The notes: a model not told the origin generated them from the letters alone. A stretch of DNA of 64,000 nucleotides from Bacillota bacterium (GCA_023397655.1 JAEWTW010000026.1:182463-246462), one strand, 5' to 3'. Counted from the stretch's first letter, positions 17,154 to 44,757 are shown. A program made the numbers and translations.

Positions 17154-17180
17154 ATAGATTGGAAAGGAGCGGACACGTCT

Positions 17181-22212: not shown

Positions 22213-23430
22213 TTATTCAATCATACACGCTGAGCCATTATATTTTCGGAACTCAATACCTATACCGATATCCGTATGGTATCCCGGCTCGTCCGCGTAG
22301 TTTCCGTTCCACGCGATCTCATCAAGAGTAGGCGTATCATATGTTTGACGACGCTGTTCAATCAGTCTTAATGCTTCGCGGCCCATAACCGTGAGCGCGA
22401 ACCTGTCCTCCTCAAAAATATCCATTAACGACTCGGCGGCGGCTAAGCGAATTCCATAATTTTCATTGCTCAGCCTGCCATACTCGAATACCGCCTTCTG
22501 GTTGCATTCAGGCAAACCTTCATAAGCGGCAAGACGCACCTCGATACTGCAATCGTGAACAGCGGTATCACGCATCCACTCCATCTTATTCGGGAAATCA
22601 GCCTTTACCAATCTTTTTGCCGCCTCAGGGCGGATATACCAATCGGTTGTGTTTTGGACCAGATCCATCAGTAGATCTGAACGGGTGATTTGGTTTAAGA
22701 GGTTCAAGGCATCAAAGATGATATGTCCATTACAGAGCCGAATATACGCAGCCTCTTCATTTCGCCCCAGCCGTTTAAAAAGAACTTCCTTTTGGTCAAT
22801 CGTCAGTTTCTTATCCTGCAGTTTCGCTTCCAGTACGGCATGATTGCTGCAATGCGATACCGCGCAATGCCATAACCCGTTATTCTCGGCAGTATCCTTT
22901 ACAAATCGCTCGATCGTCTGCTGGTCATCCAGTTCGATCGCAGCATTCAGCCTATTCTCCGGTCTCGCATCCTCGCCGCACACGGCGCGCCTTAGCAAAT
23001 CGTCGGTGAGTTTATTAAAAGCAAGCGCACCTGCCTTCTCCCATTTAGCAGTCTTGGCCACTTGGGTCAGCAACGTTTCGTCAGTCATTGTTTCCACCGC
23101 CGCAGTGTAAAGATCCATCTCCTTGATCGCCAAGCGGCAAAGAAGCTGCTGATTCACCGATCTTTTAATCGCAGCCTGGCGCGTCCGCGCAAGATAGTTT
23201 CCTTCCGCGATACTGTCGATGACCGCCGGGTCGGATATCTGCATTAGCGCTGCGCTTTGGACAGGCGGCCAGCGAGCGTCTCGTACCAGATCAAGCAGCG
23301 CTGCCTGATCTTCGCGCAGCCGCTCTGCACCCAGCTCCGCAAGCTTGCCATCGTATGAATTCAACAGCGTTTTTTTGATCCAGCGCAGATTATTCGTGTG
23401 CAGCATCCTTCGGAATACCCAGGATTCCAT
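22213..23430 (-). CDS. HEAT-like alpha-solenoid paralogue (divergent N-terminus), HTD tail
   Basis: Start moved to MESW (AAGGAGGA upstream). Repeats of the type D..VR/IR..AA..L. Tail EPGYHTDIGIGIEF. Confidence 0.6.
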   Translation of the reverse strand: MESWVFRRMLHTNNLRWIKKTLLNSYDGKLAELGAERLREDQAALLDLVRDARWPPVQSAALMQISDPAVIDSIAEGNYLARTRQAAIKRSVNQQLLCRLAIKEMDLYTAAVETMTDETLLTQVAKTAKWEKAGALAFNKLTDDLLRRAVCGEDARPENRLNAAIELDDQQTIERFVKDTAENNGLWHCAVSHCSNHAVLEAKLQDKKLTIDQKEVLFKRLGRNEEAAYIRLCNGHIIFDALNLLNQITRSDLLMDLVQNTTDWYIRPEAAKRLVKADFPNKMEWMRDTAVHDCSIEVRLAAYEGLPECNQKAVFEYGRLSNENYGIRLAAAESLMDIFEEDRFALTVMGREALRLIEQRRQTYDTPTLDEIAWNGNYADEPGYHTDIGIGIEFRKYNGSACMIE

Positions 23431-23455
23431 TGTCGTCTCCTCCTTAAACATTCAC

Positions 23456-25576
23456 TTAGTGCTCAAAGTCGAACACCGTTTCCACCGTCACATCGCATCT
23501 TTCCGAAGCGCAGCCCGGATCAAAATCATGGTGCTTTAAGAGTGTGCGGCTGCCCAACTGCTTCAGCGTATTATGGCAATCTTGCGACTTTCCGTAGGCA
23601 TAGCAAAGGAAATCCCTCGCTTTTCTAAAGTCCCTCAATTCACTGCAATTTAATACCTTGTCGATCTGTTGCTTTATATACTCCATGCCGCCGTATTCAA
23701 TATAAACGTCGTCCATGTCTTTGCCTGTCAGTTTCGTAATCACCGTGGCATACCGGGGCACTTTATCCGCATCGCCGCTGCGCACCCCTGGTACAGCTGC
23801 TGTGATGATCGCTTCCCGATCTGCCAGAAAAACGTCGTTTGAGAGCCTCGCCAATATCGTTTCCATAGAAACGCGCCCATCGCGTACCAACGCAAGCAGC
23901 GGCGCCCATCGCCTCAAACGGCCGACAGCCGCTGTGCGGATATCCGACTCATCATCTAATATAAGCGATTCAAGAAAGTCCTGATCGTCAATGCGCGCCA
24001 CCGCTGCAACCCGAACACGCAGTGACGAATCGTGCAAGGCTACTTCTTTTAGGTCGCCCTCGTCAAGTGCTACCAGGGCCGCGATGCGCAGATTCTCCAG
24101 TTCCTTGGCGGCGGCCTCATGGACGTCGCTTCTGGCGTCTGTTTGTTGTATGATCCGCTCCAGCGCCGCCGCGTCAGCGATCCGTTCTGCCGCGGCTACG
24201 GCGAAGCGGCTGCCGCCCAGCGCGATCCTGAGCAGGATGGCGGTATCCGTGATATAGTTCAGGACATCGGCGCTGATGTATGTCTCCAGTCCGTCCGCCA
24301 GTCCCATTGCCTGATAGATGATGTCCTGGTTGCGTATCTTTGGCAATGCAGCGGCCACCAGTTCCCTGCCGTCCGCCGTCGGCGTTTGCTTTGTATGCTC
24401 CCAAATAACCTGCCCCAGCCGTTCATCTGAGGTCAAACGGCTGACCGCAGCCATACGTATGGACTGACGATAGCGGTGTCTGTCGCACGCCAGCTCTGCG
24501 AGCAACGGCTCGCTGGTCAGACGCAGCACCGTTTTTTCGTCAAGCTCGCTCATATGGCGCCGCGCATACAGGTTGAGGTCGGACGGGGCGGCGAGCATCG
24601 ATATCGCTTTTTGCCGGGCTTTATAGTCCCGGGATTCGATCGCCACCTCCAGAAGCTGATCCTGAGATAACGCAGTCAGCGGGATATTTGCCGGCGTCTT
24701 TGCTTTCTTCCCACCTTTTCTCTCAATGAGTGCGGGGCGAATCGCCTTTTGCAACAGCGCTTCCGTTACATCGTAAGGATGGGCGCTAATAAACTCTATT
24801 ATGTCTGCACGTTCTGTAAGTCTGCCTGCCGCTGCCTGTCTGATGGTAGCGGAATCGTTATGCAACGCTATACTTAAAAGCACCTTCTTTTCATCAATCC
24901 TGTCGAGCGCCATCATCCTCGCTCTAACTGCTTTTGCTGCACTCACCGCTTCGAGAACAGCGTCCTCGCTTCGCAGCCCCTTCACCAACGGCGCAACCGC
25001 ATCGCTTAGCGTAACTCCCATATCATCAAGCATTTTCAGCGTATTCAGTATCATTTTATCCGAAAATCGCCAAAGCATCGCGGAAACTTCTGGAGCGGAG
25101 CGCGAGAATATCCCCACACATTGCAGCAATACGATCGCCAGAAAATCTTCATCCTTAGCACAGCGTTTCAGGTACTCGTTCCGGGCTTTTTGTTCAAGAG
25201 TTGCCAGCATCTTTGCGAACGCTGCGTGGTCTTCCGTCACATCAAGCGCGGCGGAAAACAACGCAGCCACGCGCGCCGCATCTCCCTGAGACGCTTCATA
25301 TTCCAGCCGCTGCAAGATAGCCTTGAATTCCTGTGGATAATCCGCGATGCAAGAAAGCGCTTTTCCTGCCACACCTGCGCTGATTCGCGGTTCATCGAGA
25401 GCCAGGCGTTCCAGCAACAGCTCGTCTTTGATGCGAGATACCGCGAAAAACGCCACCGATTCCTCACGCGCGCCTTTAGCCGCACGCAGCAGCGCACTGT
25501 CGGAATCCAATGCAGCCACCGCTGCCAGTGCTCTGTTCGTATCTTTATCCTGCCATGCAGGTGACAATAGTCCCAT
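23456..25576 (-). CDS. HEAT-like alpha-solenoid paralogue, 706 aa
   Basis: N-terminus MGLLSPAWQDKD behind AGGAG. Many A..RL.D...L..IA repeats. Tail KHHDFDPGCASERCDVTVETVFDFEH. Confidence 0.7.
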   Translation of the reverse strand: MGLLSPAWQDKDTNRALAAVAALDSDSALLRAAKGAREESVAFFAVSRIKDELLLERLALDEPRISAGVAGKALSCIADYPQEFKAILQRLEYEASQGDAARVAALFSAALDVTEDHAAFAKMLATLEQKARNEYLKRCAKDEDFLAIVLLQCVGIFSRSAPEVSAMLWRFSDKMILNTLKMLDDMGVTLSDAVAPLVKGLRSEDAVLEAVSAAKAVRARMMALDRIDEKKVLLSIALHNDSATIRQAAAGRLTERADIIEFISAHPYDVTEALLQKAIRPALIERKGGKKAKTPANIPLTALSQDQLLEVAIESRDYKARQKAISMLAAPSDLNLYARRHMSELDEKTVLRLTSEPLLAELACDRHRYRQSIRMAAVSRLTSDERLGQVIWEHTKQTPTADGRELVAAALPKIRNQDIIYQAMGLADGLETYISADVLNYITDTAILLRIALGGSRFAVAAAERIADAAALERIIQQTDARSDVHEAAAKELENLRIAALVALDEGDLKEVALHDSSLRVRVAAVARIDDQDFLESLILDDESDIRTAAVGRLRRWAPLLALVRDGRVSMETILARLSNDVFLADREAIITAAVPGVRSGDADKVPRYATVITKLTGKDMDDVYIEYGGMEYIKQQIDKVLNCSELRDFRKARDFLCYAYGKSQDCHNTLKQLGSRTLLKHHDFDPGCASERCDVTVETVFDFEH

Positions 25577-25651
25577 GAATCTACACTCCTATATACGTCT
25601 GCTACAGCCGCTCTAAATCGAAATAAGACCCATAATCCGCGTGTCTTACCA

Positions 25652-25831
25652 TTACGGTAACCATGACCAGCATAAATTCACTGCTGATCCGCTCAACCGC
25701 CTTGCACACCAGTTGATATTGTTGATTTTGCAGGCAAGCCGCACCAAGAGTTCATCATCTGTGCATACGTGCCTGATGGCCTTTTTGGCCCGAGCAATAT
25801 TCTTACTCATCCACGGTATAAATAGTCCCAA
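25652..25831 (-). CDS. 59-aa mini-paralogue: N-terminal motif plus one repeat (possibly a remnant)
   Basis: TTG start 7 nt after GGGAGG gives MGLFIPWMSKNIARAKKAI... The upstream DNA resembles that of the 27046 start. Confidence 0.4.
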   Translation of the reverse strand: MGLFIPWMSKNIARAKKAIRHVCTDDELLVRLACKINNINWCARRLSGSAVNLCWSWLP

Positions 25832-25933
25832 ATTAATACCTCCCATTTTGATGCAGAGCATCGGCCTTTCTAGCAAAAAACTAGATTTACAGATCAATCG
25901 TTGTTGGTAGTCGCTACCCAAGAATATTACAGA

Positions 25934-27046
25934 TCATACGGGCAGGTCAAAGTGCACCTCCGCTTTATCTTCGTGTGGGGCACAACGATCTTCTCTATAG
26001 TCGTAATGCTCGTGATATGTACGTCGAGGGATTTTCAAAATCGCTTCACGCACCGCATCGTCCTTGGTTTCGCGATACATTTCCAGCAAGGCTTTCCGCG
26101 CAAAAGGCGCAACACGTCGGCTTTTTTCCATTATACGCAACAACGCTTCCACCGATGCTTGGGTTCGGATGTCTTTGAGCCGATCACATACTTCCCGATA
26201 TTGATCAAAATCTTTGCGATCTATCAGCTTCTCCAGTGCCGGAACAACGCGCGGATCGTCAAGCTCCATCAGATAATACGCATTATCGTTGCGTAGACAT
26301 TTGCTTATTAAAGCTGCAAGCGGCTGGGAATAGCGTGAAGAATCACGCTTCATGAGTTCAACTGCCACAAGGCAGCGCACATGCTTCAAGTTATCGGTGC
26401 ATAGCGCAAAGGACAGTAGCGAAGCATTGGATAATCGCGTCATTGCCAATTCAGCAATTCTTGCACGGCACCCCTCGTCTGAATCTTCCAAAAGATTTTT
26501 TTCGAGCAGGGCTAGATCGTCAATCTTATCGAAAATGTCCTTATTCCAATAGGGGTCTCGACGAAAACAGAAATACAATGTGTTTGGATCGGTAGTGATT
26601 TTTGCAAGGTGTTGGGCGGTGTTCCTGCGGACCTGGTGATCTTTTTCAGACATGATCAGTTCTTTTAGCAGTTCCACGTTCATAATTTTTTTCGAGGCAT
26701 TCATTCGAGCGAAGAAACTTGTTGCTTCTGCCGCTATCTTGAACAGCATATTATCGTCGTAGATTTCCTCCATTGCTTTTCTTGTGGCTTGATTCTCCTT
26801 AATACGATAAATTTTTGAATAATCGCATTTTATAATTGCCTCGGTTCGTACATAAACCGAGCTATCCGTTGCAGCGATTTTCGCGATTACTTCTTGATCC
26901 GTCAGCTTTTTTACAGCGAAGGCGCGCGTTCTTTCAAGTGGTGCTTTGAGCGCTGCTTCAGCAATCTTTCTCTGGTCGTTCAGATTTTCGATGGCATTTT
27001 CAGCTCGAGCTCTGTCCGTGCTCATCCATGGTGTAAATAGTCCCAT
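25934..27046 (-). CDS. HEAT-like alpha-solenoid paralogue, 370 aa
   Basis: Start at MGLFTPWMSTDRARAENAI (AGGAGG upstream). Tail TYHEHYDYREDRCAPHEDKAEVHFDLPV. Confidence 0.7.
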   Translation of the reverse strand: MGLFTPWMSTDRARAENAIENLNDQRKIAEAALKAPLERTRAFAVKKLTDQEVIAKIAATDSSVYVRTEAIIKCDYSKIYRIKENQATRKAMEEIYDDNMLFKIAAEATSFFARMNASKKIMNVELLKELIMSEKDHQVRRNTAQHLAKITTDPNTLYFCFRRDPYWNKDIFDKIDDLALLEKNLLEDSDEGCRARIAELAMTRLSNASLLSFALCTDNLKHVRCLVAVELMKRDSSRYSQPLAALISKCLRNDNAYYLMELDDPRVVPALEKLIDRKDFDQYREVCDRLKDIRTQASVEALLRIMEKSRRVAPFARKALLEMYRETKDDAVREAILKIPRRTYHEHYDYREDRCAPHEDKAEVHFDLPV

Positions 27047-27089
27047 ATTAGTACCTCCTACTTTTGCGCATCTGATATGTTTCAACAAT

Positions 27090-28598
27090 CTAGTTCACAG
27101 ACAGCGCATACAATTCCTCTACACTCATGCCGAATCGCTCCTGAACGCTCTCTTTGAAAATATTCATTGATACGTTCATAAAATCATCACCCGTCGCATT
27201 AAAGGCTTCGTTAAGCGCCGAGCGTAAGGGTTCAATACTTTGCGGGTTATATTCAAATTTATTCGTGGCAGGATAATAGTCAAATCTTGCCTCGGTGCCG
27301 TCTTTTTCCAAAGAAATGAAATAAACATTCTTATCTGCGAAATATAAAATCAGCATCTGATAGCCCTTCACATCGGGATCAACAAAAGACATGCTCCAGT
27401 CAAGCCTATTCTCGACGGCGACATTATTATCCCATTCCGGTTTATGAATAGAAATTTCCATGCCGTTTTCTTGGTAAGTATAAGTTCCCTTATAATCAAG
27501 AAATGCAAATCCAAGTGTTTCATACGGGGATTGCAGCACAATATTTTCATCAAAGGGCATGCTATACAGTATATCGATGGGAAGTCCTAAAGCCTCCTGA
27601 ATTATATTGTCAAAGAAGACAAAGGGGGTAAGCAGTACATCCTTGTCGTTCACATCGTTAAACGCCTCCCGTACAATTGCCTCCATGCTTTCACGGTCAC
27701 AGTTGAAGCTGTTTGTGGTGACATTGTAAACATAGGTATAATTTTTCTGAGTGTTTGGATTAAACATCCATACAACATAGGCGTTATGCACCGGATAGAA
27801 ACCGATAGCATTCTTATAGCCACTCTTAGCCCCGGTAACCACTCGAATGCAGTTTTGCCAATCTTGCTGCGGCGGATCACCCCACTCGACATGATTGATG
27901 CGTATGTCGTATTTATCCGTTTGATACAACGCCAGTTTGTCGTCATCGTTGAAGTTAAAGCCAAGCTCGGCAAGGGTAAAAGCCACATCAAAGTCGGCTT
28001 GTTCGAGGTTTGCGCGCATATCCGCAAGCGGAAAGTAGTTCCCAATCTGGCTACCCTCAAGGTACAGACATTTTAGGTTGGTGAGAGCTAAAAGCGGTGT
28101 TGGGTCTGCGATTGTGGAATGATCCAGCATCAAGACACTCAGGTTGGTCAGTCTGGCAAGCGGAGTATAGTCTTCTGCCGTGCAACCGGAGAGTATCAAT
28201 GCTTTCAAGTTGGTCAGAGCTGACAGAGGTGCAATATCGGTGATTGCGTTGCCGGATAAATCAAGGCTCTCGAGGCTTGTAAAGTTCTCCAATCCGGCGA
28301 TACTGCTAATCGGTGCTTTTTCCGATATGTATTTCTGCCAATCCGCAAAAGCGAGGTTCAAGCTTGTCACAGCTTTCGCTTCCGCAGCCGTAATATCACC
28401 GTTGGGCTTGCCCATAGCACCACGCACTATCACCTCAAGCGTTGGGTCGGCAAAGGTCACAACGCTAGTCGTCGCAGTTTCTGTCTGCGTTGGCGTTGGT
28501 AACGGTGTTGGTAATGGTGTTGCCGCAGTCGGTGTGCCACATGCCACCAGTGAAGTGAGTAGCAGCAGAGCGAACAATGCGGACAGTACCTTTTTCAT
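27090..28598 (-). CDS. lipoprotein with leucine-rich repeats (internalin-like LRR)
   Basis: Start moved to MKKVLSALF (GGAGGA upstream). Lipobox LTSLVAC. TP-rich linker. LRRs such as LESLDLSGNAITDIAPLSALTNLKALIL. Confidence 0.75.
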   Translation of the reverse strand: MKKVLSALFALLLLTSLVACGTPTAATPLPTPLPTPTQTETATTSVVTFADPTLEVIVRGAMGKPNGDITAAEAKAVTSLNLAFADWQKYISEKAPISSIAGLENFTSLESLDLSGNAITDIAPLSALTNLKALILSGCTAEDYTPLARLTNLSVLMLDHSTIADPTPLLALTNLKCLYLEGSQIGNYFPLADMRANLEQADFDVAFTLAELGFNFNDDDKLALYQTDKYDIRINHVEWGDPPQQDWQNCIRVVTGAKSGYKNAIGFYPVHNAYVVWMFNPNTQKNYTYVYNVTTNSFNCDRESMEAIVREAFNDVNDKDVLLTPFVFFDNIIQEALGLPIDILYSMPFDENIVLQSPYETLGFAFLDYKGTYTYQENGMEISIHKPEWDNNVAVENRLDWSMSFVDPDVKGYQMLILYFADKNVYFISLEKDGTEARFDYYPATNKFEYNPQSIEPLRSALNEAFNATGDDFMNVSMNIFKESVQERFGMSVEELYALSVN

Positions 28599-28624
28599 TT
28601 GGTGAATCCTCCTTTTTTTATCAA

Positions 28625-29812
28625 TTAGTTGTTGATAAAGCTCCAATATTCCGAGAAGTTTTCCTCACTTAGAAGAATCCTTGATCCGTAGATCTGCTTG
28701 CCCTTTGCTGCATCGAGCATCTCTTTGCGCACGCTCTCGCCGACAGTAGTGGCATAGTCAAACAATCTTTCGGAGAAAATGCTCTCTCCCGTTGTAAGGT
28801 TCAACAATTCGGCATCCAGCGAGGCGTTGTATTGCGGAATGGTCGAATCATCATCACCGAAATGGAACGTCCCGATTTTGTTTTCATAGCTGTAATGCAA
28901 CAGAAGCGCATAGGTGGCTTTGTTGGGATCATCGGTTAAGATCAGTCCGCCGAACAAAAGATTGCCTGAGGTTTCTATCATGTCCTGCGTGCTGATTGGC
29001 TTATGTCGGGCGGAGGCACTGTTGTACCCGCCTTCGGATTCCCTTTTTGTTACGAGATCGATCACCTTATCCGCACAGACGATGTAGTATTTGGGAATGG
29101 GAGAGGACGGCGTAAAGGCGCGGATGTCCGAAACCCCATAGGCGCTTTGAAGGGCTTGTTCATCCCAATTACGAAGCAGCGTCTCATCAAAAATGGTTTC
29201 AGCGGGGTCTCTTAGTGCGGCTAGCTCATCTTCTGCTTGAGACGAATAGTAGGTGCTGGGATCCTGTATGGATAATTTGAAACCGAAAACGCCACACCCG
29301 ATTGTTGTTTGCGTGCCATCTGTTCCGCTGTACAAATAGTTGTACACCAATAAGAACGGAGCAAACTCTTCGTTAAAGCACAGGTTTGAAATCGTGTTCG
29401 CGCCCACAGAAAATTCATCAGTATATTTGCCATATTGAACAGGGTACGGCCCCGCGAAGTTCTCTGTGGCCGAGGCAACTTTTATTTGGGTCTTTGAATC
29501 CCCACTGCCCACTGATGCATTTAAGTTTGAGATCTTAATCGTTACGTCATGGATGTACGTTTTGTCGGCAGAGAGAATAAAGCTGCATTTGATATCGCCA
29601 ACACCGGAATTCTTGCTATGCCCTGCGAAAAGCAATTCGCCTTCTTTGGGCTTAGCCACAGGTTCCACAGTGGGGGCTGACGGTGGTTCAACCGTGGGCG
29701 CTGCGGACGATAGTACTTCCGGTGATGCCGTTACTGCGGGAACGGGTGCACTGCAGGCTGCCATCGAAACAATTAGCAACAACGCAAGAAATGTGAACAG
29801 TGTCTTTTTCAT
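28625..29812 (-). CDS. lipoprotein of unknown function
   Basis: Signal peptide and lipobox IVSMAAC. No other motif recognised. Confidence 0.6.
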   Translation of the reverse strand: MKKTLFTFLALLLIVSMAACSAPVPAVTASPEVLSSAAPTVEPPSAPTVEPVAKPKEGELLFAGHSKNSGVGDIKCSFILSADKTYIHDVTIKISNLNASVGSGDSKTQIKVASATENFAGPYPVQYGKYTDEFSVGANTISNLCFNEEFAPFLLVYNYLYSGTDGTQTTIGCGVFGFKLSIQDPSTYYSSQAEDELAALRDPAETIFDETLLRNWDEQALQSAYGVSDIRAFTPSSPIPKYYIVCADKVIDLVTKRESEGGYNSASARHKPISTQDMIETSGNLLFGGLILTDDPNKATYALLLHYSYENKIGTFHFGDDDSTIPQYNASLDAELLNLTTGESIFSERLFDYATTVGESVRKEMLDAAKGKQIYGSRILLSEENFSEYWSFINN

Positions 29813-29868
29813 AATAGAAACCTCATTTTCTTATTAGCCTCACCTTGTGAAAGATATCTTGTCATGCG

Positions 29869-30864
29869 CTACTTAAACAAATTCCATGATAAATCCGTCA
29901 GGTCATACAGCACTTCATGCGTCATTTTACTTTTATCGCACAATTTTCCCGTCAGCAACAATGTTCCATCACGCTTTAACCCAGCGGTTATATCAGCGTT
30001 GGCTTTTATGGCCACAATGTCAAGCCAGTGCTGTGTTGCTGTTTCTCCATTTTCACTAAATCCTGCGGAAACAACGGTACCGTCTCCCTTAAGCCCTATT
30101 GACGTATGGTTACCAGCCGCGACAGCAACGATATCACGCCATTGCTCCACCGCGAGGCAGCCGCCAGCATCGTTCCCAAACGCTTTCACCGTTCCATCAG
30201 CTTTTAACAAAAGCGTATGGTTAAAGCCTGCAGCGGCCCCAATGACGCTTTCAATTCCGGGAATATCACATTGCCCACAGTTGTTATCGCCGGCGGCAAG
30301 CACTTTACCGTCGGCGGTGATTCCAATGGTATGATTATCTCCTGTAGCGACGTCGACCACGTTGTTCCATCCGCTTACATCGCATTGCCCATAGGCGTTG
30401 TAACCCGCTGCACTAACGCTGCCATCCTCATGAACGGCAACAAAATGATTCATCCCAGCGGAGCCTGTCAACACGTTGCACATCCCTGCAACGTCGCATC
30501 GCCCGTGCGCATTCTCTCCGGCTGTAAGCACAGTCCCTTTATTGGTGATCGCTGCCGAAAAGTAGCCACCACCGCAAAGAACCGCAACATTTTTCCAGTC
30601 TTTGCTGTTGTTTCTGCCATCCTTACCGAAACCTGCGGAGAGAACACTGCCGTTGTTCCTGAGGCCCATCACATAACCGCCGCCAACGGCGATTCGAGCC
30701 ATCATTTTTCTTGTTTCACTTAGACTGAATCGAGCTGCTTGCACCGCTTCTTCATAAACCAGGCCGCACGCCCGTTTTGGCTGTTGTATCTGCGGTTTTT
30801 GTCCCGATGCCAGTGAGTTGTTGGTCTCCTTTTCCGTCTTTTTCAAAATATCAGAAAATCCCAT
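29869..30864 (-). CDS. RCC1-like repeat (beta-propeller) protein
   Basis: At least six repeats of ...G..HT.G...DG.V.A.G.N..GQCDV..W.... No signal peptide. Confidence 0.75.
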   Translation of the reverse strand: MGFSDILKKTEKETNNSLASGQKPQIQQPKRACGLVYEEAVQAARFSLSETRKMMARIAVGGGYVMGLRNNGSVLSAGFGKDGRNNSKDWKNVAVLCGGGYFSAAITNKGTVLTAGENAHGRCDVAGMCNVLTGSAGMNHFVAVHEDGSVSAAGYNAYGQCDVSGWNNVVDVATGDNHTIGITADGKVLAAGDNNCGQCDIPGIESVIGAAAGFNHTLLLKADGTVKAFGNDAGGCLAVEQWRDIVAVAAGNHTSIGLKGDGTVVSAGFSENGETATQHWLDIVAIKANADITAGLKRDGTLLLTGKLCDKSKMTHEVLYDLTDLSWNLFK

Positions 30865-30987
30865 CTTTATATCTCCTTTGTTTTGGTTTAAATCATCTAT
30901 AATCTGTAGACCGATTAGCAGCTAAGAGTTCTGCGTCTACCGGTTAAATCCCCTGGCTTGAAACCTAACCCAATCGCTGTACTGGTT

Positions 30988-32244
30988 TCATAGTGGCTCA
31001 ATAAGCCCGTCCTTGACCACATAATCACTATGGCCGGCACAATTGCTGCTGATGGGTCCGTCGTTGTGGACATCGCGGAATCGCTTTTTCTGGCGGGCAG
31101 CGTGCTGTGCGAACGGCTCCGGCAGCTCCGCCTCGGAATAGAGCCAGCGCAACTGTACGGTGGCAAAATGATCACCTCCCGACACCCTTTTTTCCAACGC
31201 CTCGATTAGCGCAAATGAACAGCGCTTTTGGAAAAGCCCGCGCAGCTCCCCACTGTCACCGGATTGCTGCACATACCGAATAGCATCCTCCTCGCCACCA
31301 CACCAGGCAAGCCGTTGCTTAAAAATATCGCTGTGCTGCGGATATTCCGCCTCGCGTCTCCGCCACCAGCAAGCCGACGCGTATTCAACTGGTATCCATG
31401 TGGCGATATGTTCACGTTTTAGACTATCTTTTGGCAAATTTTCAAACAGCGTCATAAGCTCATCGGCCTTCATTTTTTTCATAGCGGCAGTTTCGGCATC
31501 TATCACTGTCGTTTTGACAAAGACGTCTTGTGCGTCGCCAGGATCAATACGTTTGGCGGCTCTGACACTTATATAGCTATCCATAAGGGCAATCTGTTTC
31601 AAAAGTGCTGGGTTTTTGATACATTCATCCTCAATGCTCTTGATACACAGCTTTTGCATGCTCTTTTCGTCAGCGAATGAGAGGATCAACTTGCATAGCG
31701 CGTCCTCATCCGTTATCTGTTCACCGCAAAGAGCACGCAGCTCGCCGTTTTCCGAAGCATCCATCGCAATTTGCGCAAACAGCCTTTGGTCAGCCTCGCC
31801 CCAGTCGGATTGTTTAAGCTCCCCCAGGCGCTCCATCGCGGCACAACGCACATCTGCAGAAAGCGCGCTATCCGCCACAACATGGGTAAGCAGTCGGACG
31901 TCGCTCAGGTGTCTCACAGCCGCGCGTTTCCCGGAGTCGCTGGGGTGCTGTCGCACAAGCGCATACAGCAAGCTTGGGTCGGTCAGCCGTTTCAATACTA
32001 TCCAGCCGAAGGCTTCCAATGGCAGTTCTTGCGTCAGTGCCATAAAGAACTGTGCAAGAAATTGCTGGTCATTAATACGTTCAATGCAAAGCTGACGCAA
32101 ATGAACCTGATCGTCGGGGAGCAGGCCGGAATGGCCTATATCCGAAAGCAGTATTTTAATCAGCTTTTTCTCGTCGCGTATTCTGCCGATAGCCTTTTTT
32201 TGCTTAGCCCAGTTTGTCGTCATATAAGGCTTAAAAATACCCAC
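30988..32244 (-). CDS. HEAT-like alpha-solenoid paralogue, 418 aa (GTG start)
   Basis: AAGGAGGA, 4 nt spacer, then GTG gives MGIFKPYMTTNWAKQKKAI. Lies 16 nt downstream of the radical-SAM stop. Tail FRDVHNDGPISSNCAGHSDYVVKDG. Confidence 0.7.
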   Translation of the reverse strand: MGIFKPYMTTNWAKQKKAIGRIRDEKKLIKILLSDIGHSGLLPDDQVHLRQLCIERINDQQFLAQFFMALTQELPLEAFGWIVLKRLTDPSLLYALVRQHPSDSGKRAAVRHLSDVRLLTHVVADSALSADVRCAAMERLGELKQSDWGEADQRLFAQIAMDASENGELRALCGEQITDEDALCKLILSFADEKSMQKLCIKSIEDECIKNPALLKQIALMDSYISVRAAKRIDPGDAQDVFVKTTVIDAETAAMKKMKADELMTLFENLPKDSLKREHIATWIPVEYASACWWRRREAEYPQHSDIFKQRLAWCGGEEDAIRYVQQSGDSGELRGLFQKRCSFALIEALEKRVSGGDHFATVQLRWLYSEAELPEPFAQHAARQKKRFRDVHNDGPISSNCAGHSDYVVKDGLIEPL

Positions 32245-32260
32245 AATATCCTCCTTTTCG

Positions 32261-34456
32261 TTACGTGAGCATGCCTGCCAAATGTATAAACGCGGCTTTC
32301 CGAGCCGTGCAGTCAAAGTCTCCGCTGTCAATGTTCTTATCTTTTGACCATGCCTTACACATCCCGCCGCAAAGGTATCGAACTTCGCATTCTTTGCATT
32401 TTTCATTCATGTCCACATCGTGCCGGGTTAGTTCACGGAAAGTCACTCCCTCTACAACATCATCCAACCTATCTTTGAGCAAGTTGCCCAGCTTCTTATC
32501 CGCACCGCACCACGCATAGCACGGATAAGCGCCGCCGTCCGGCTCCACGTAAAGGTTCTGCCCAAAGCCGCAGGAGAAGCGCGGCCTGAAAGGCCGTTTC
32601 TTCTCATTCTCGTCTATGCAGAGAAAATCCGAGTCCTTCGGTGCGCTTTCCGCCCTACCTAACGGTAGAATTGGTCTGAATCGCACATTTTCGATCCCAA
32701 GACGTTCGCACAATTCATCAACCGATTTCCCTTCTTGTCCTTCGCGCTGCGTTTTAGTCAGCGTCGCGCAGACGCCTACCCTGCGGATGAAGCCCAATTC
32801 CTTAATTCGTTCAAGGTTATCTATCGTCCGTGCGTAACGCCCTGCGCCGCGCTGCGCATCGTGGCTCGCTTCGTCGCCGTCTACGCTGACCACAATTTCA
32901 GGAAAGGCCTCGCACACAGCTTTCAGGCGCTCATCGGAAATCGGAAAGCCAAGCGACGTGCGCAGTATCAGCCGCATACCTTTCAGCGAAATACGCCTGA
33001 TTCCCGCGAGCATTGCGTCGATTTCGGTATGCACAAGCGGCTCTCCGCCCGTCACCACCACCGCGCGAAAAAACGACTTCTGCGCCGCTTTGATAATATT
33101 AAGCATCGCGTTTGCAGGCATTTCGTTCATTTCACTCTCGCCACCCCGCGCATAGCAATGCCCACAGCGCAGCGGGCAATCGAACGTGACATGCAGATAC
33201 AGCTTGTTGAGTTCATTGACTCGGTTTTTCTTGTAACGCTCAAGAGCAGTACTCGCGCCATACGGATAACGGCCCCACTTGGACGCTTGTCTCATACGCT
33301 GTTCGTTGATCTCCAGATCGTAGGGGTGCGGCTGGTCCCCTGCCATCTGCAGCAGCGGAGCATTCTCAGGAGGTATGCGTTTCGTCATAATGTAACCCAT
33401 CTCAAGCGCCATATCGCGCGATATCTCGTCAAACAACGCGCGGTATGCCTTGCAATAAGGGTCTTTCGTGGTGTCTGAAGCAAACATGTTGTAAAGGCAT
33501 CCGCCGCTGCAATACGGGAAATGAACGCACGTCCCGCACTCAGTATGCGCGCCTTCCTGCTTTTCCAGTAATTTGCGGTACGCTGCGCTTTCAATAATCT
33601 GCGCTTCGGTCAGGTCGTCCATCACGTTTCCCAGCGCAAATTCCTCATGCCCGCAGAAGCGCTGGCATGAATAAACGCTGCCGTCCGGAGCAATCGCGGC
33701 GAAACGCCCGAGGCACGGAAAAAAAGTGCACGTATGCCCTTCGCCATCAAAGCAGCCTTTCGCCATGGAATCCAGCGTAAATACCCTTGTCTGCCGCATA
33801 TTTTTCTTGTATGCAGCCAGGGTATCCAGCATAATTCTGGCCATGTCGTGAGCGGTCACAGTATACGCGTCAGGCTCGCAGCCCAGTGCGCGTACCGCAC
33901 CGTGCAAAGCATATGGAATTCCGCTGCGCAGACTGCCCGCATAATGCCGGAATACGCGCTCAGCCTCGCCCGCGGATTCATGGGTAAACGTGCAAATACG
34001 GCTGGTCTCCACGCCATATTGCAGCAGCACCGACCGACCGCTCTCATTGGCAGCATAGTACCCTTTCCCGCGCTGCGCATCGCACATCGCTTCATCGCCA
34101 TCGATGCTGGTTCCTACGGCAATGCGGTAATCCCGGATGAGCTGCGCCATATGTTCGTCCATCGCGATGAGGTTACTCTGTATGGAAAGGCGTAACCTGC
34201 GTCCAAAGCGTTGCTGCAGTTTTGGCAGTATGGTTTCGAAAAATCCCGCACCAGCCAGCAAAGGTTCGCCGCCGTGAAATGTAACGCGTACGCTTCCCTC
34301 TTCCGGCGCGATCCGTTCCATAAAATCAAGCACTTTATCTGCCACCTCGCGCGTCATGGTTTCACCCCGGTTGGGGCCGAAGCAATAGGTACACGAGGCC
34401 TGGCAGGCCGCTGTGGGCACGAGCATGAAATTGCCGGGGCGAAAAGACGGTTCCAT
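32261..34456 (-). CDS. fused double radical-SAM/SPASM-domain enzyme
   Basis: Two CX3CX2C sites (CQASCTYC and CPLRCGHC). Each is followed by Cys-rich SPASM-like segments (CTFFPC...CQRFC...CGTCVHFPYCSGGC and CGFG...CYAWC...CKECEVRYLCGGMC). Start is ATG 34456 or GTG 34459, behind GGAGG. Confidence 0.85.
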   Translation of the reverse strand: MEPSFRPGNFMLVPTAACQASCTYCFGPNRGETMTREVADKVLDFMERIAPEEGSVRVTFHGGEPLLAGAGFFETILPKLQQRFGRRLRLSIQSNLIAMDEHMAQLIRDYRIAVGTSIDGDEAMCDAQRGKGYYAANESGRSVLLQYGVETSRICTFTHESAGEAERVFRHYAGSLRSGIPYALHGAVRALGCEPDAYTVTAHDMARIMLDTLAAYKKNMRQTRVFTLDSMAKGCFDGEGHTCTFFPCLGRFAAIAPDGSVYSCQRFCGHEEFALGNVMDDLTEAQIIESAAYRKLLEKQEGAHTECGTCVHFPYCSGGCLYNMFASDTTKDPYCKAYRALFDEISRDMALEMGYIMTKRIPPENAPLLQMAGDQPHPYDLEINEQRMRQASKWGRYPYGASTALERYKKNRVNELNKLYLHVTFDCPLRCGHCYARGGESEMNEMPANAMLNIIKAAQKSFFRAVVVTGGEPLVHTEIDAMLAGIRRISLKGMRLILRTSLGFPISDERLKAVCEAFPEIVVSVDGDEASHDAQRGAGRYARTIDNLERIKELGFIRRVGVCATLTKTQREGQEGKSVDELCERLGIENVRFRPILPLGRAESAPKDSDFLCIDENEKKRPFRPRFSCGFGQNLYVEPDGGAYPCYAWCGADKKLGNLLKDRLDDVVEGVTFRELTRHDVDMNEKCKECEVRYLCGGMCKAWSKDKNIDSGDFDCTARKAAFIHLAGMLT

Positions 34457-34472
34457 CACGATATTTCCTCCA

Positions 34473-35522
34473 TCAATCAGGTTGAAACAGTATCGGTTGT
34501 TCAATAGCATCTGTATGCCCCATATCTATGTGATCTCCGAGGTCATAAAACTCATGATGCACATCGCTGTGACGCTCGGGAAGAATCATGCGTCCGCGGA
34601 ACAAATGAATTTGTTCCACAAATCTCCCGTTCTTATAGATGAACTTGAGCAAAGCGCTTGCAATCATTGAGTGTTTTTCAAAGCATACATGGACGAGCGC
34701 CTGAAGCAAGGCGTCGTCTGTATTATCTATCCAGTCGGTGCGGCCTTCTTCGCTCAGCTGTATCAGTCGTTCACCCGCCTTTTCTGCATAACCATCTCCG
34801 CCGCTCAGAAAAATATTTAAAATTCCCATTGGTTTTAGTCGTGCCAATGCGGCGTCCGAACGATGCTTTTTCGCGGCTTTAAGGAAAACCTGCTGATTGT
34901 CGGGCATCCTCTCCAGCGCCCATTCACGAGTGTCCGGATATGTAGAATTCGAGGCTATATAGGCGATATCCGCCTTTTCAACTATTTTTGAGAACGCCGC
35001 TTTGCGCACATCTGAGTCCTGATCATTCAGGCATATTTGCAGCAATACGTCTCGGCATACATTTCCAGATTTCACTGCTTTACGCTTTTCATAAGCTGAA
35101 TGTGCATACTGCGCAATAAGCGTATCAGCTTCTGGATCATTGCCCAGTCGTCTGTGCGCAACCGCTCGCACTCCCCAGTTGGGATCGGTTTTGGTAAGTT
35201 CTTGGAGAACCGCCGCGTTTTCAATGCGTTCGGCAGCTCTCTGGCGAAAGCTGTCAGTTTCGCAATGCCGCCCGATCTGACTCAAGAGTCCCTGGTCGGT
35301 GATTCGATCAAGCAAGTCGGCAGCGTAGACGTTTGGTTTCATAACAATTTGATATAGCAGCGTCTGATCGGTAAGCCGTTCTGCCGCGACTTTTCTTACT
35401 TTATAGTGGAAGCTTCCATCCGAGATAATCTCAAACAACGTTTGTTGATCCCTGATACGTTCGACGGCTTTTGCCGCTTTAACATGATCCCGATGTTTCC
35501 ATCCGGGTGTGAACAGGCCCAT
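34473..35522 (-). CDS. HEAT-like alpha-solenoid paralogue, 349 aa, HxD-richest tail
   Basis: Start at MGLFTPGWKHRD (GGGAGGA upstream). Its stop lies 1 nt before the radical-SAM gene's GGAGG RBS (start 14-17 nt further downstream). Tail ERHSDVHHEFYDLGDHIDMGHTDAIEQPILFQPD. Confidence 0.7.
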   Translation of the reverse strand: MGLFTPGWKHRDHVKAAKAVERIRDQQTLFEIISDGSFHYKVRKVAAERLTDQTLLYQIVMKPNVYAADLLDRITDQGLLSQIGRHCETDSFRQRAAERIENAAVLQELTKTDPNWGVRAVAHRRLGNDPEADTLIAQYAHSAYEKRKAVKSGNVCRDVLLQICLNDQDSDVRKAAFSKIVEKADIAYIASNSTYPDTREWALERMPDNQQVFLKAAKKHRSDAALARLKPMGILNIFLSGGDGYAEKAGERLIQLSEEGRTDWIDNTDDALLQALVHVCFEKHSMIASALLKFIYKNGRFVEQIHLFRGRMILPERHSDVHHEFYDLGDHIDMGHTDAIEQPILFQPD

Positions 35523-35535
35523 CGTTGAATCCTCC

Positions 35536-38241: not shown

Positions 38242-39288
38242 CTACCACCCCGCTGTTTGTTCATTTTTGTCCTCAGCCCAGCGTAAAGTAGGTATAACCT
38301 TCATCGTTATGGCTCGATTCACATGGCCACTGTGAGTAATCGGTTTGTTCACTAAGCCTTTAATCTCCGTTTTAGATTGTTCTCTTTTATATATCCGTTG
38401 TGAAAACCCGTATTCTGCCGCCTTTACGCTAATGTTTTCCCACTCGTGTTTTACGGGAAAACGTCGGCTATGTTTGCACGTTGCGATGCGCTCGAACACA
38501 GTAAAATCCTGAATCCTGCCCGCTGCATCTGCACGTATCTCCTCAGGCCCGCACAGTACCAGCAAAGCCAGCCGCCAGTCATCCGTGATATCGGCCGCGC
38601 TCACCATTCTTGCGCACTCTTCGCATACGGCCAGGTGCAGCGTCTGCCCCATAATCTCTGCAGCGAGCGCCTTATCACCTGTTTTGCGGAGCGCTTTGAC
38701 GCATATATAGGGTTCTTCGGTATTACGCGCCATCCATGCCGCGGACGCGGTATTTTGCATATAGACAGCAATGCACAAGCGCAAGTCCTCGGAATCCGCC
38801 GCATCGAACACAGCCTGTAGGTAATCCTGGTCTTCTATCCGAATCAGCGCATTAACGCGCACGGCTTCGTCTTTATCATTCTCGTATATCCATTTCAGCA
38901 GCGCCTGATCCGTCACATAACCTGCTGCTTAGCGGCGCAGTATCTCGGTTCCATACCGCGATACACAGGCGAGGCAGTCTTGAAGCAGAGTATTATGTAT
39001 GGCTGCTCTCCCGTTGGTCATGCAGATATCACACCATGCTCTCGCAAACGGCTCAATCCCCAGCAGCCGGACAACCGCCCGCTCACCAATGCCTTCCGGC
39101 ACCATGTCAGCAGCCAGCCTCATCAGCATAGTAGAATCATTCATCCGATCAACGGCCATGCACCGGATACGCATATCAACCGCTTTGCGCGCCGCGCGGC
39201 AGAGCACGACCTGACGTTTTACCCGCTGAAGCGCTAACTCCGCTTTCCTGTAGTTGGTGGACATCCACGCCGGTTTAAATAGGCCCAT
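38242..39288 (-). pseudogene. disrupted paralogue of the 883-aa gene
   Basis: MGLFKPAWMSTNY N-terminus. In-frame TAA at 38929-38931 where the paralogue has Lys (RRK vs RR*). A frameshift near the 3' end: the shifted frame reads HNDEGYTYFTLG* and ends at 38273. A large internal deletion relative to 35536..38187. Confidence 0.75.
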
Positions 39289-41337: not shown

Positions 41338-41766
41338 TTATTCCCCCAGAGCTTGAAGATCTAAATGCGCCAGCGCTTCCTGTGTCTCAGAGAACCCCAT
41401 ACCGTGCGTGATGCAGTACAGCAGCGCAACATCGCGTTTTACCCGTGGATACAGTTCGTTCTTTTTCGCGATTCTCAGCATTTTTTGCGTTTTTTCCACA
41501 TCCACACCCAACCCAATGGCCAGTTGTATTACCTTATCGCGTGATGGCCTGCGTGTGCCATTAAAAATTTGATGCCCATAGGTTCGCTCAATGCCGGAAC
41601 GCTTAATGACATGCTGTGGTGTCTCACCCATGCTCATGCATAGCTCTCTGATGTAATCTGAAAATGACGGCAAATCCGGCAAGTCCGTATGAGTGATGTA
41701 CTGATCAATGTTATCTGTTTTAAATAGGCTTTCTAGTAAATCGCCGGTGGACATTTTCTTCTCCAT
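41338..41766 (-). CDS. XRE-type helix-turn-helix protein, paralogue A
   Basis: Shares IERTYGHQIFNGTRRPSRDKVIQLAIGLG with the 44311..44757 product (IEKAFCNQLFNGTRKPSRDKVIQLAFGFG). Confidence 0.65.
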   Translation of the reverse strand: MEKKMSTGDLLESLFKTDNIDQYITHTDLPDLPSFSDYIRELCMSMGETPQHVIKRSGIERTYGHQIFNGTRRPSRDKVIQLAIGLGVDVEKTQKMLRIAKKNELYPRVKRDVALLYCITHGMGFSETQEALAHLDLQALGE

Positions 41767-42559: not shown

Positions 42560-44311
42560 TCACTGATATGTAATTTCTATATTGGTTCCCGTCAGCGCTT
42601 GCGCCGCGCCCCGCATATCCTCGGTGAGCGTAATGTTTTCAAGATTAGGGAGCCGTATAAGGGGTAAAAGGTCAATATCCGGCATATTCCATACTCCCAC
42701 ATTGTTGAGGCTCGCCAGGTTTTCGATCCCCGACAGCGATTTAATTTCTACGCCGTCCAACTCCAAACTCTCCAAATCCTCAATTCCGGCCAGTTCGTGA
42801 AGCGATGCGAGCGAAGACGCCGCGATCTTTAATTGATGTATCGTTTTTCCGTTTAGATACGGCAGGTATTTTTCAGTATCCATATTGATCATATGCAGAT
42901 ACTCAATATCCCCGAGCGAAGCAAGCGGGGAAAAATCATCCGTCAAACAACTGACTAAAATCAGTTCCCTGATGCTTGGGCAATCTGCCAGCGGAGACAG
43001 ATCCATAACGGCGTCACAATCCGTCAATAGAAAATGTTTCAGCCCCGGAAGTTGCCGGATGATTTCGATGTCGGTGACAGGACAAGAGTAAAGTTCCAGC
43101 GATTGAAGGCCGGAAAGCTGCACAAGCGCGGATATGTCTGTAAAATCCTGATACCCCAAGCTTAGTTGCTGAAGATTCTTTAGTTTGGCGATATCGCCCA
43201 GATCAGATATAGCTCCCTCTCCTGCTTCGATCTCACCACTGTTAACCTGCCCGCGCAGTTCGTTCAGTTCCTCCTGCGTTTTTGCGGTATGGCCGGCGTA
43301 GATATACAGCTCCTTAACGTTATTTAGTTCCTCCACTTGAATAGGCTCATCTTCCGACTTGCCAAGCTGAAGACGCACCGCCTGCTCAACAAGCGGCTCG
43401 GAAAAATATGCATCGGAGTTGTTATAGAAAACAGGAGGCCTGATATCGGTAAATCTTCCGATCGCAAACCCTGCATTTAGCAATACAAACGATGCAAGCG
43501 CCATGCCAAGCACCAGCAGCGTCTTTTTCTTTTTGTGCCCGTCGGCGCTTTGAAGTGCTCTTCTAACTTGTTCCGCATCACGGTATCGGTCTTTCGGCGC
43601 AAAGGCCGTACATTTGCGCACGATATGTTCCAATCTGCGGTTCTTTAAGCGTAAAGCCTTCAATGATGTGCGCCCAGTTAGCAGCCAGGAAAGAACTACG
43701 CCCAATGAAAATATATCAGCGCGATTATCGGTTTGAGAAAACCCGTATTGCTCGGGCGGCGCAAATTCCTGCGTTCCGAAGAAAACGGTGTCTGCCCGTG
43801 CGGATTCGTCATACTCACGCGAAATGCCAAAGTCAATCAGCGTCACTTTTCCGCTTTCATCTATTATAATATTTTGCGGCTTTAAATCCCGGTGTATGAT
43901 TGGTGGCTTTTGCTTATGAAGATACGCGAGTATTTCACAAAGTTGTATGCCGATATTGATGACCTGCTTTTCCGAAAGCCGTTCTTTAAGCTGGCTTAAC
44001 GGGTCACCCTGCGCAAACTGACGTACGACACAGAGCATGTTTTTGTTTTGAAACTCCTCCACCAGCTCAGGCAAACCTCTATGATGGAGCTTTTTCAGTA
44101 ATTCATTTTCTGATGCTTGAGATAATAAGGAAGTGTCAGTATAGCACTTTGCTATATAGTCGGTATTGAAGCTGTCTCTGACGAGCAGAGTTTCTCCCAT
44201 CTGATTTTGCGCAAGGCATTCCATAGGCTCATATTTTTCAAGAAAATCCTTAGGATAATAGTTATCGTCATATTCCTTAAGGAAATCATTTAAGATTTCT
44301 TTATCCATCAT
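42560..44311 (-). CDS. membrane Ser/Thr protein kinase with an extracytoplasmic LRR domain
   Basis: YIAKC, HRDLKPQNIII, DFGISRE and APPE kinase motifs. One TM helix (LLVLGMALASFVLL). C-terminal LRRs (LKNLQQLSLGYQDFTDISALVQLSGLQSLEL...). Confidence 0.85.
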   Translation of the reverse strand: MMDKEILNDFLKEYDDNYYPKDFLEKYEPMECLAQNQMGETLLVRDSFNTDYIAKCYTDTSLLSQASENELLKKLHHRGLPELVEEFQNKNMLCVVRQFAQGDPLSQLKERLSEKQVINIGIQLCEILAYLHKQKPPIIHRDLKPQNIIIDESGKVTLIDFGISREYDESARADTVFFGTQEFAPPEQYGFSQTDNRADIFSLGVVLSWLLTGRTSLKALRLKNRRLEHIVRKCTAFAPKDRYRDAEQVRRALQSADGHKKKKTLLVLGMALASFVLLNAGFAIGRFTDIRPPVFYNNSDAYFSEPLVEQAVRLQLGKSEDEPIQVEELNNVKELYIYAGHTAKTQEELNELRGQVNSGEIEAGEGAISDLGDIAKLKNLQQLSLGYQDFTDISALVQLSGLQSLELYSCPVTDIEIIRQLPGLKHFLLTDCDAVMDLSPLADCPSIRELILVSCLTDDFSPLASLGDIEYLHMINMDTEKYLPYLNGKTIHQLKIAASSLASLHELAGIEDLESLELDGVEIKSLSGIENLASLNNVGVWNMPDIDLLPLIRLPNLENITLTEDMRGAAQALTGTNIEITYQ

Positions 44312-44757
44312 TATGTTTCCCCAAGTATCTGTAATCCAAGATCGTGCAGCAAGCTTTGGGTTTTATCAATATTGAAAAGATGATTGATGCAATAGATGAT
44401 GGCGGCATCTCTTTTAAGCCGGGGGTATAACGGGCTTTTTTGTGCAATCTGAAGCATCTTCTGAGTTCCTTCCAGATCAAGCCCAAAACCGAAGGCCAAC
44501 TGAATCACTTTATCTCTGGAGGGTTTTCGCGTTCCGTTAAAAAGCTGATTACAAAAAGCCTTTTCGATAGAAGCTCGGCTTGCTATATCGCTTTTCTTTT
44601 CTCCGCGTTCGTTGCGCATCTGTTCGATATAGTCATGAAAAACTGGTATCTTTAGGTCTACTTGGTTATTTTCAATAAAGTCTTTGATGTCAGCTGTTTT
44701 GAATAGTCGGCGAAAAAGTGTGCTTGTCCTCAACCCCGACCCCTTTTCTTCCTGCAT
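44311..44757 (-). CDS. XRE-type helix-turn-helix protein, paralogue B, coupled to the kinase
   Basis: TAATG stop/start overlap with the kinase gene. HTH segment as in paralogue A. Confidence 0.65.
   Translation of the reverse strand: MQEEKGSGLRTSTLFRRLFKTADIKDFIENNQVDLKIPVFHDYIEQMRNERGEKKSDIASRASIEKAFCNQLFNGTRKPSRDKVIQLAFGFGLDLEGTQKMLQIAQKSPLYPRLKRDAAIIYCINHLFNIDKTQSLLHDLGLQILGET

Follow-up and report, generated by a model that had tools for sequence, protein, structure and literature searches.

Three genes for an RCC1-type propeller and two lipoproteins form a lineage-restricted block within a radical-SAM/HEAT-like operon of a Bacillota bacterium

Do an RCC1-type propeller protein and two lipoproteins, encoded in the middle of a radical S-adenosylmethionine (SAM) operon, belong to the system that this operon specifies? 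The question is raised by a stretch of 64,000 nucleotides from a Bacillota bacterium (GCA_023397655.1 JAEWTW010000026.1:182463-246462), referred to here as the window. Three minus-strand open reading frames (ORFs) fill positions 27090..30864, between two HEAT-like paralogues at 30988-32244 and 25934-27046. They encode an RCC1-type protein (29869..30864, 331 residues), a lipoprotein of a rare unannotated family (lipo395; 28625..29812, 395 residues) and a lipoprotein with internalin-like leucine-rich repeats (LRRs) (LRRlipo; 27090..28598, 502 residues). The gaps along the series from the upstream paralogue through RCC1, lipo395 and LRRlipo to the downstream paralogue are 123, 56, 26 and 43 bp. 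Each of the three genes is preceded by a Shine-Dalgarno-like sequence, and no minus-strand terminator-like site was found in the interval 27090..30864. Our answer, which we hold with a probability of about one half, is that the block is a lineage-specific accessory envelope module joined to a propeller derived from the HEAT-like paralogues, and that lipo395, probably together with LRRlipo, serves as a partner of a receptor-type kinase of the same island.

Homologous loci with the twin radical-SAM enzyme were fetched, 2 of them from species-representative genomes and 54 from metagenomes, and three near-identical contigs were found by means of the exact RCC1 protein. The loci were searched by tblastn with all island proteins and with family hidden Markov models (HMMs) for RCC1, lipo395 and LRRlipo. 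The full trio is confined to L001-L003 (99-100% identity) and L004, a metagenome-assembled Bacillota genome with 92% nucleotide identity. By both methods, RCC1 and LRRlipo are absent from L005-L059, whose radical-SAM enzymes are 32-86% identical to that of the window; among them are 25 loci whose flanks reach 3 kb or more, and the flanking sequence totals 279 kb. This absence indicates that the block is accessory, not core, to the radical-SAM/HEAT system. According to a preliminary description of the locus, the association would be fortuitous if homologous solenoid/radical-SAM loci elsewhere lacked these genes, and for RCC1 and LRRlipo such a lack is largely what is seen outside the lineage of the island. 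The nearest outgroup (L006-L008, radical-SAM identity 73-74%) possesses the orthologue of the upstream paralogue, HEAT418 (72-75%). In L007 and L008 the slot after this orthologue is occupied by a 337-residue zinc (Zn)-ribbon protein with multiple transmembrane (TM) segments, followed by the next paralogue. A Christensenellaceae locus (L005, 63%) comprises the radical-SAM gene and three paralogues, with none of the three genes, and in L010 a single HEAT-like gene accompanies the radical-SAM gene, with housekeeping genes beyond it. The sole partial exception is L015 (52%), where a 196-residue lipoprotein that corresponds to the N-domain of lipo395 alone is encoded after the radical-SAM gene.

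Within the lineage of the island, window positions 27072-34446 align with L004 positions 10002-17374 as a continuous 7.4-kb block that extends from the radical-SAM gene to LRRlipo and is 91.8% identical. The comparison of the window with L004 is mosaic: the genes upstream of this block are only 75-81% identical, and HEAT349 is replaced. The synonymous divergence (dS) from L004 is 0.11-0.22 for the three genes and 0.40 for the radical-SAM gene.

Both lipoproteins start with MKK and continue with a hydrophobic stretch and a lipobox (SMAAC in lipo395, LVAC in LRRlipo) whose cysteine is residue 20. Lipoproteins were called by rule (positive n-region, hydrophobic h-region, lipobox); MKKTLFTFLALLLIVSMAAC and MKKVLSALFALLLLTSLVAC match the pattern [LVIM][ASTVI][GAS]C, and the hydrophobic segment spans residues 1-26/30. 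lipo395 and LRRlipo are predicted substrates of Lgt and Lsp, lipidated at Cys20, in line with the two lipoprotein signal peptides named in the preliminary description. In the AlphaFold2 (AF2) model of lipo395 (predicted local distance difference test score, pLDDT, 73.6), the lipobox and an Ala/Pro-rich linker lead to a β-sandwich domain (about 55-182) and an α/β domain (about 205-395). lipo395 has no match in Pfam, NCBIfam, PHROG or PADLOC. A Foldseek search of its model against the PDB returned nothing at E ≤ 0.001, with TM-scores below 0.25, and in a PDB profile search only the Zn-ribbon/TM part of the alignment matched. A word-indexed search yielded 12 homologues, and an exhaustive profile search of 1.84e9 proteins yielded 44 representatives at E ≤ 1e-30; a further 16,408 weaker profile matches derive mostly from the Zn-ribbon part of the profile. 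Most relatives of lipo395 carry a cytoplasmic Zn-ribbon and a TM anchor in place of the lipobox, with the same topology on the outside. Three proteins (P0286, P0293 and P0011) contain lipo395 domains fused to LRR_5 (BspA-type LRRs) and PG_binding_1.

The kinase is encoded 12.7 kb upstream of the lipoprotein genes, on the same strand (42560..44311). It is a Hanks-type Ser/Thr kinase (Pkinase, 1e-33) with one TM segment (residues 263-285) and an LRR_4 ectodomain; the LRRs of the ectodomain had been recognized beforehand. It is probably the signaling hub to which lipo395 is linked. It forms a two-gene pair with an XRE-type helix-turn-helix (HTH) protein of 148 residues (44311..44757; HTH_19/HTH_3), and a second minus-strand gene of the same HTH type lies at 41338-41766. 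Orthologues of the HTH protein precede the kinase in L012, L061 and L075. Members of the lipo395 family are encoded within 13 kb of an HTH plus kinase-LRR pair in 4 of 6 contexts, namely the window/L004 lineage, L061/62, L071/72 and L075/76. The lipo395 family is a recurrent partner of this pair; away from this island its companion is the kinase and not the radical-SAM enzyme.

The neighborhoods differ in their details. L061 (5264-14367) and L075 (1391-8461) share an operon that encodes an HTH protein of ~150 residues, a kinase-LRR, a lipo395-like protein with a Zn-ribbon and TM anchor, a lipoprotein of ~330 residues and a multi-TM protein of ~610-656 residues; in L061 the kinase and lipo395-like genes are separated by two extra genes. 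Compared with their window counterparts, the kinases are 38-40%, the L075 HTH protein 44% and the lipo395-like protein 43% identical, and the L061 and L075 kinases are 53% identical to each other. A looser version of this operon is present in the L071 sequence (1-11188), which contains a cluster of regulators, including a 511-residue HTH regulator, Zn-ribbon membrane proteins and lipoproteins, headed by the kinase-LRR gene. At the end of this cluster, ~9.6 kb downstream of the kinase-LRR gene, an LRRlipo-family gene (51%, frameshifted) is followed directly by lipo395 (85%). LRRlipo lies within about 13 kb of an HTH plus kinase-LRR pair only in the window lineage and in L071. The same pair is found near the radical-SAM enzyme as well: in L012/L013 it precedes the radical-SAM gene by 2.3 kb, and the HTH family is also present in the radical-SAM loci L004, L006, L009 and L057. 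A Zn-ribbon multi-TM family is common to the L071 kinase cluster and the L007/L008 radical-SAM loci, and the radical-SAM locus L015 encodes a homologue (44%) of the L061/L063 multi-TM protein. A specific relation between the LRR domains of the kinase and of LRRlipo had been envisaged; close paralogy was rejected on the basis of 24-27% identity and a generic internalin-type N-cap. In PADLOC, the kinase has generic kinase matches only.

The RCC1-type protein begins with a short N-terminal tag, MGFSDILKKTEK, and matches Pfam RCC1_2 (PF13540) with E=1.1e-34 and 117.8 bits, against a cut-off of 22, over 5 scored stretches; WD40_RLD scores 103 bits, under its cut-off of 150. Blades were located by anchoring on the [DNK]G[STK][VL] motif, which revealed seven of them with an exact 38-residue period (71, 109, 147, 185, 223, 261 and 299). 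The earlier estimate of at least six repeats was correct, if low. The protein has no hydrophobic segment, signal peptide or TM segment, and its designation as cytoplasmic-looking therefore holds. A signal peptide or TM segment is present in 92 of the 120 best RCC1 relatives. Weak PDB sequence matches were obtained to HERC1, RPGR, RCC1 and UVR8, PHROGs gave generic "regulator of chromosome condensation" matches only, and PADLOC gave none. No partner GTPase that would point to a guanine nucleotide exchange factor function of this protein is evident in the island.

The origin of the RCC1 gene is indicated by an orthologue, P0133, which comprises 436 residues, is 84% identical to the window protein and has ~105 extra residues between the N-terminal tag and the propeller. 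With 34% identity (E=1e-11), residues 28-148 of P0133 align with residues 3-127 of a HEAT-like paralogue whose gene neighbors the radical-SAM gene in L015. The alignment begins at a W...K signature and continues through "LTDQ" repeats. It suggests that the RCC1 gene is a chimera with ancestry in the HEAT-like paralogue family of this island, either derived from that family or recombined with it. The window protein starts with MGFSDILKK and is devoid of the "TDQ" repeats of the HEAT-like paralogues. At its C-terminus, LCDKSKMTHEVLYDL bears a by-eye likeness to the paralogue tail RCAPHEDKAEVHFDL. This candidate tail was rejected and the likeness treated as chance, since it has no match to the tail HMM, which was built from 20 paralogue tails and recovers the five window paralogues used in its training (E 4e-10 to 2e-5). 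lipo395 and LRRlipo have no match to this HMM.

LRRlipo likely starts at ATG 28598 and not at TTG 28646, because AAAGGAGG lies upstream of 28598 and the 502-residue form is called on other contigs. Its Cys20 is invariant in 44 homologues. The lipobox is followed by a Pro/Thr linker, an internalin-like N-cap with LRRs (about 45-205) and two tandem modules of β-sheet plus helix (about 215-346 and 365-498), which are duplicated. The internalin-like nature of the repeats, proposed earlier, is confirmed by LRR_4 (E=1.1e-12), by partial matches to internalin NCBIfam models (53-56 bits against cut-offs of 1050-1600) and by the AF2 model (pLDDT 87.2), for which the best Foldseek matches are the LRR domains of InlA, InlB and InlH. 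Superposition of the LRR part on InlA/InlH gives about 3 Å and about 30% identity, and in a PDB profile search positions 46-197 of the profile match InlA with 6.6e-97. The 300 C-terminal residues have no Pfam match and no PDB sequence match, and LRRlipo as a whole has none in PADLOC or PHROGs. More than 280 homologues of LRRlipo were found, and most of the 120 listed are full-length at 40-90% identity.

Two observations on the neighbors of LRRlipo-family genes may be recorded here. Between LRRlipo and the next paralogue, L004 (17520-19158) has two extra genes, for a 340-residue protein with an MGLF start and for a 203-residue Zn-ribbon/TM protein; the latter resembles, by eye, the 211-residue Zn-ribbon/TM protein that follows the L071 kinase. 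Judged by eye, a soluble domain of ~120 residues (IRHIVCLCYDAPYIN...VKYFVLYA) seems to recur as the C-terminus of the L061 multi-TM protein (12523-14367) and as a separate 225-residue protein of L069 (7216-7893), which is encoded upstream of two tandem LRRlipo-family genes. This domain has no Pfam match.

We propose the following arrangement. Judged by signal-peptide rules, both lipoproteins would cross the membrane by the Sec route, acquire their lipid at Cys20 and, in what would be a monoderm cell, remain anchored at the outer face of the cytoplasmic membrane. Their folds suggest that they display binding surfaces, an internalin-like LRR with a duplicated module in one case and a β-sandwich with an α/β domain in the other. 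lipo395, probably with LRRlipo, might act as an extracellular accessory or ligand-presenting partner of the island kinase. The kinase and its HTH partner could then relay the input to cytoplasmic targets, maybe including the HEAT-like paralogues, alongside which the RCC1 propeller may provide an alternative cytoplasmic interaction scaffold. The two lipoprotein genes would have been drawn from a mobile pool of envelope genes. Their link to the radical-SAM/HEAT genes would be indirect, via the kinase pair, which also recurs beside other radical-SAM/HEAT loci. The preliminary description had suggested a system that spans the cytoplasm and the cell surface, an interpretation that is borne out in part. 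Four findings speak for such a span centered on the LRR-ectodomain kinase: the lipo395-kinase neighborhood, the N-domain lipoprotein of L015, the HTH and kinase genes beside radical-SAM loci and the P0133 fusion. The inclusion of RCC1 and LRRlipo in the core of the radical-SAM/HEAT system does not stand.

Several points weigh against our interpretation. Many of the metagenome loci are short, so that no more than about 25 loci demonstrate that the block is absent. In two of the six lipo395 contexts (L060 and L063) no kinase is present within the available sequence, and L061 and L075 may be orthologous operons and so not fully independent counts. No radical-SAM gene was seen in the L071 sequence, which covers the kinase and the genes downstream of it. 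The window copy of RCC1 is without the HEAT-like module, which was either lost or never gained, and the tail HMM does not match it. Finally, homologues of LRRlipo at 61-81% identity stand mostly alone in defense or mobile regions, with no kinase, lipo395 or radical-SAM gene in those loci. Their neighbors include, in L064-67, McrBC, Vsr and DNA methylases; in L073, a type I restriction-modification system, an HNH protein and, immediately upstream, a TIR protein; in L068, transposases and serine recombinases; in L069, TnpV; and in L074, an integrase.

These unrelated mobile and defense contexts are also a reason to consider that the lipoproteins are hitch-hiking cargo, self-contained surface proteins (for example adhesins, or proteins for mobile-element defense or superinfection exclusion) put by recombination into a permissive slot with no functional tie to their surroundings. 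Moreover, serine recombinase genes that are 91% identical to each other flank the island on both sides, the contents of the slot vary between island variants, and the GC skew over 27600-29700, where the lipoprotein genes lie, is unlike that of the neighboring genes. The lower dS of the three genes is compatible with a later exchange. Such an origin does not account for the recurrence of lipo395 with the kinase pair and with an LRRlipo-family gene, nor for the inheritance of 27072-34446, including the radical-SAM gene, as one 92% segment. It is likewise at odds with the distal end of L001 (19021-20994), a contig otherwise 99.5% identical to the window, where an extra 323-residue HEAT-like paralogue adjoins a second, different LRR lipoprotein gene (38% to LRRlipo). 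Neither lipoprotein matches an entry in PADLOC or PHROGs. We consider the cargo explanation possible and incline to doubt it.

The opposite explanation, one obligate multi-compartment machine in which RCC1, the lipoproteins, the paralogues, the radical-SAM enzyme and the kinase are all integral, could draw on the tight same-strand packing free of terminator-like sites, on the uniform identity with which block and radical-SAM gene are co-inherited, on the fusion of an RCC1 orthologue to a paralogue module and on the position of the L015 lipoprotein. It is largely refuted by distribution, and we regard it as unlikely: RCC1 and LRRlipo are absent from all other homologous loci examined, including the closest outgroup at 74%, minimal loci contain the radical-SAM gene and HEAT-like genes only, and members of each lipoprotein family are encoded in loci that show no radical-SAM/HEAT genes. 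That the three ORFs are not real genes, or are decaying pseudogenes, was suggested only by the RCC1 gene of L004 (13593-14589), which carries one frameshift near codon 214. The ratios of nonsynonymous to synonymous divergence (dN/dS) from L004 are 0.13-0.34 for RCC1, lipo395 and LRRlipo, which indicates that the three genes are under purifying selection and functional. Purifying selection extends to both halves of the frameshifted copy, so that the frameshift is either an error of assembly or an inactivation of very recent date. Each of the three near-identical contigs examined carries intact, identical copies of the genes, and 16 contigs have the exact RCC1 protein on record. All three ORFs have ribosome-binding sites, the domain matches obtained are strong, and the AF2 models are confident. 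Artefact and decay are excluded for the window copy, for which they have a negligible probability.

The accessory block is part of an array of minus-strand genes that spans ~26 kb (roughly positions 21.2-45.9 kb of the window). Two large serine recombinase genes bracket the array at 19467-21149 (downstream copy) and 45898-47559 (upstream copy); they are 91% identical at the protein level, in direct orientation and 26.4 kb apart. A third, truncated recombinase gene (45001-45879) adjoins the upstream copy. This arrangement suggests tandem or nested recombinase-mobilized elements. In the direction of transcription, that of the minus strand, its products are the HTH protein, the kinase, a Nudix protein, the second HTH protein, small Zn-ribbon proteins, the HEAT-like paralogues and the twin radical-SAM/SPASM enzyme. 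The enzyme (32261..34456, 731 residues) has two Radical_SAM and two SPASM domains and scores 332 bits against TIGR04083, above the cut-off of 300. HEAT418, on the upstream flank of the block (30988..32244, 418 residues), has a GTG start, begins MGIFKPY... and carries an H/D/C-rich C-terminal tail. The paralogue on the downstream flank (25934..27046, 370 residues) begins MGLFTPW... and has the tail ...HEHYDYREDRCAPHEDKAEVHFDLPV, with matches to Pfam HEAT_2 (2.2e-8) and to the tail HMM (4e-10). HEAT-like paralogues of the window (22213-38187) share an N-terminal MGLFxPxW motif and a C-terminal HxD...C.HxD...FD[FL] (or FPPYPF[ND]D) tail. Paralogues with such tails accompany the twin radical-SAM/SPASM enzyme in metagenome loci in which the identity of the enzyme is as low as 32% (L005, L007, L012, L014, L015, L022, L029, L031, L048 and L051). 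The conserved tails, borne on full-length HEAT-like proteins, look like candidate substrates of the radical-SAM/SPASM enzyme. Additional RCC1, lipo395 or LRRlipo genes did not emerge from HMM searches of the window, and the DNA of the 27090..30864 block has no match in phage or plasmid collections.

Other features of the window were noted in passing. An 883-residue paralogue (35536-38187) contains the tail motif three times (residues 414-439, 642-660 and 855-885) and looks like a fusion of three paralogue units. A 214-residue Zn-ribbon protein (window 39300-39944; L004 4313-4954; L005 9251-9892) is 64-68% conserved, better than most HEAT-like paralogues, and its gene stays near that of the radical-SAM enzyme even in diverged loci, so the protein may belong to the core. 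At 38242-39288, a 119-residue MGLF-type ORF adjoins a 224-residue HEAT-like ORF where L001 (1577-2290) has a single 237-residue call, which points to indel or fusion variation among the paralogues. The GC content is 0.59 in the first 2 kb, about 0.48-0.53 over the island and 0.36-0.42 from 44 kb on. This sharp shift in base composition indicates that the window joins segments of different origin.

Each protein of the block may be compared with better known ones. Slr is a membrane-bound LRR lipoprotein (PMC3105044). LRRlipo resembles streptococcal Slr and Blr and the Listeria internalins in being a Gram-positive surface protein with an internalin-type N-cap and 22-residue LRRs. It differs in having only ~6 repeats, no internalin inter-repeat immunoglobulin-like domain, no LPXTG or GW anchor and no histidine-triad region; it is attached through its lipobox and possesses instead the 300-residue C-terminal region of two tandem modules. 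Its host, moreover, is no recognized pathogen and belongs to an uncultured Bacillota lineage seen only in metagenomes. LRRlipo thus works like the internalin/Slr class and is not a member of it. The RCC1-type protein shares with the RCC1 superfamily the seven blades and the G..HT.G...DG.V.A.G.N..GQC repeat; its blades are 38 residues long, whereas those of the eukaryotic superfamily members have 50-60. It qualifies as a genuine RCC1_2 propeller, of the bacterial kind with short blades, to which we take BLIP-II-like forms to belong.

Bacterial Hanks-type receptor kinases with extracellular sensors include the PASTA kinases PrkC and PknB. The island kinase is similar to these in its single-pass topology and extracellular repeat domain, and is encoded with putative extracellular accessory proteins; it differs in that its ectodomain consists of LRRs instead of PASTA domains and its partners come from unannotated families. 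Plant LRR receptor kinases work with LRR co-receptors. By analogy, the kinase, lipo395 and LRRlipo might constitute a receptor-kinase/co-receptor complex that controls the radical-SAM-modified paralogues and the RCC1 derivative, which would make the island one mobile eukaryote-like sensing and response system. The likeness to the plant pairs is functional speculation by analogy, and we think such a complex improbable. The host operon is reminiscent of radical-SAM/SPASM peptide-maturase loci, with a TIGR04083-type enzyme and candidate substrates that carry conserved C-terminal tails. The three proteins give no indication of being maturase substrates or maturation factors, as RCC1 fails the tail profile and the lipoproteins are predicted to be extracytoplasmic. 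No account of this arrangement was found in the literature on radical SAM with SPASM and HEAT repeats, or on Hanks kinases with LRR ectodomains in Clostridia.

Taken singly, an RCC1_2 propeller, an LRR lipoprotein and a surface lipoprotein are proteins of familiar types, and their position in the radical-SAM operon is lineage-specific, so the block by itself is a modest finding. The kinase-LRR/lipo395 operon and the radical-SAM/HEAT-tail system are the more interesting leads. To our knowledge, bacterial LRR receptor kinases are a class without known ligands or co-factors. The conserved unannotated operon of uncultured Clostridia that encodes an HTH protein, a kinase-LRR, a lipo395-type protein, a lipoprotein and a multi-TM protein offers a candidate extracellular partner for such a kinase. 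The fusion of RCC1 to the N-terminal module of a paralogue hints at which part of the paralogues is the interaction module, and the presence of the kinase pair beside the radical-SAM/HEAT-like system provides a testable handle on how that larger system may be regulated.

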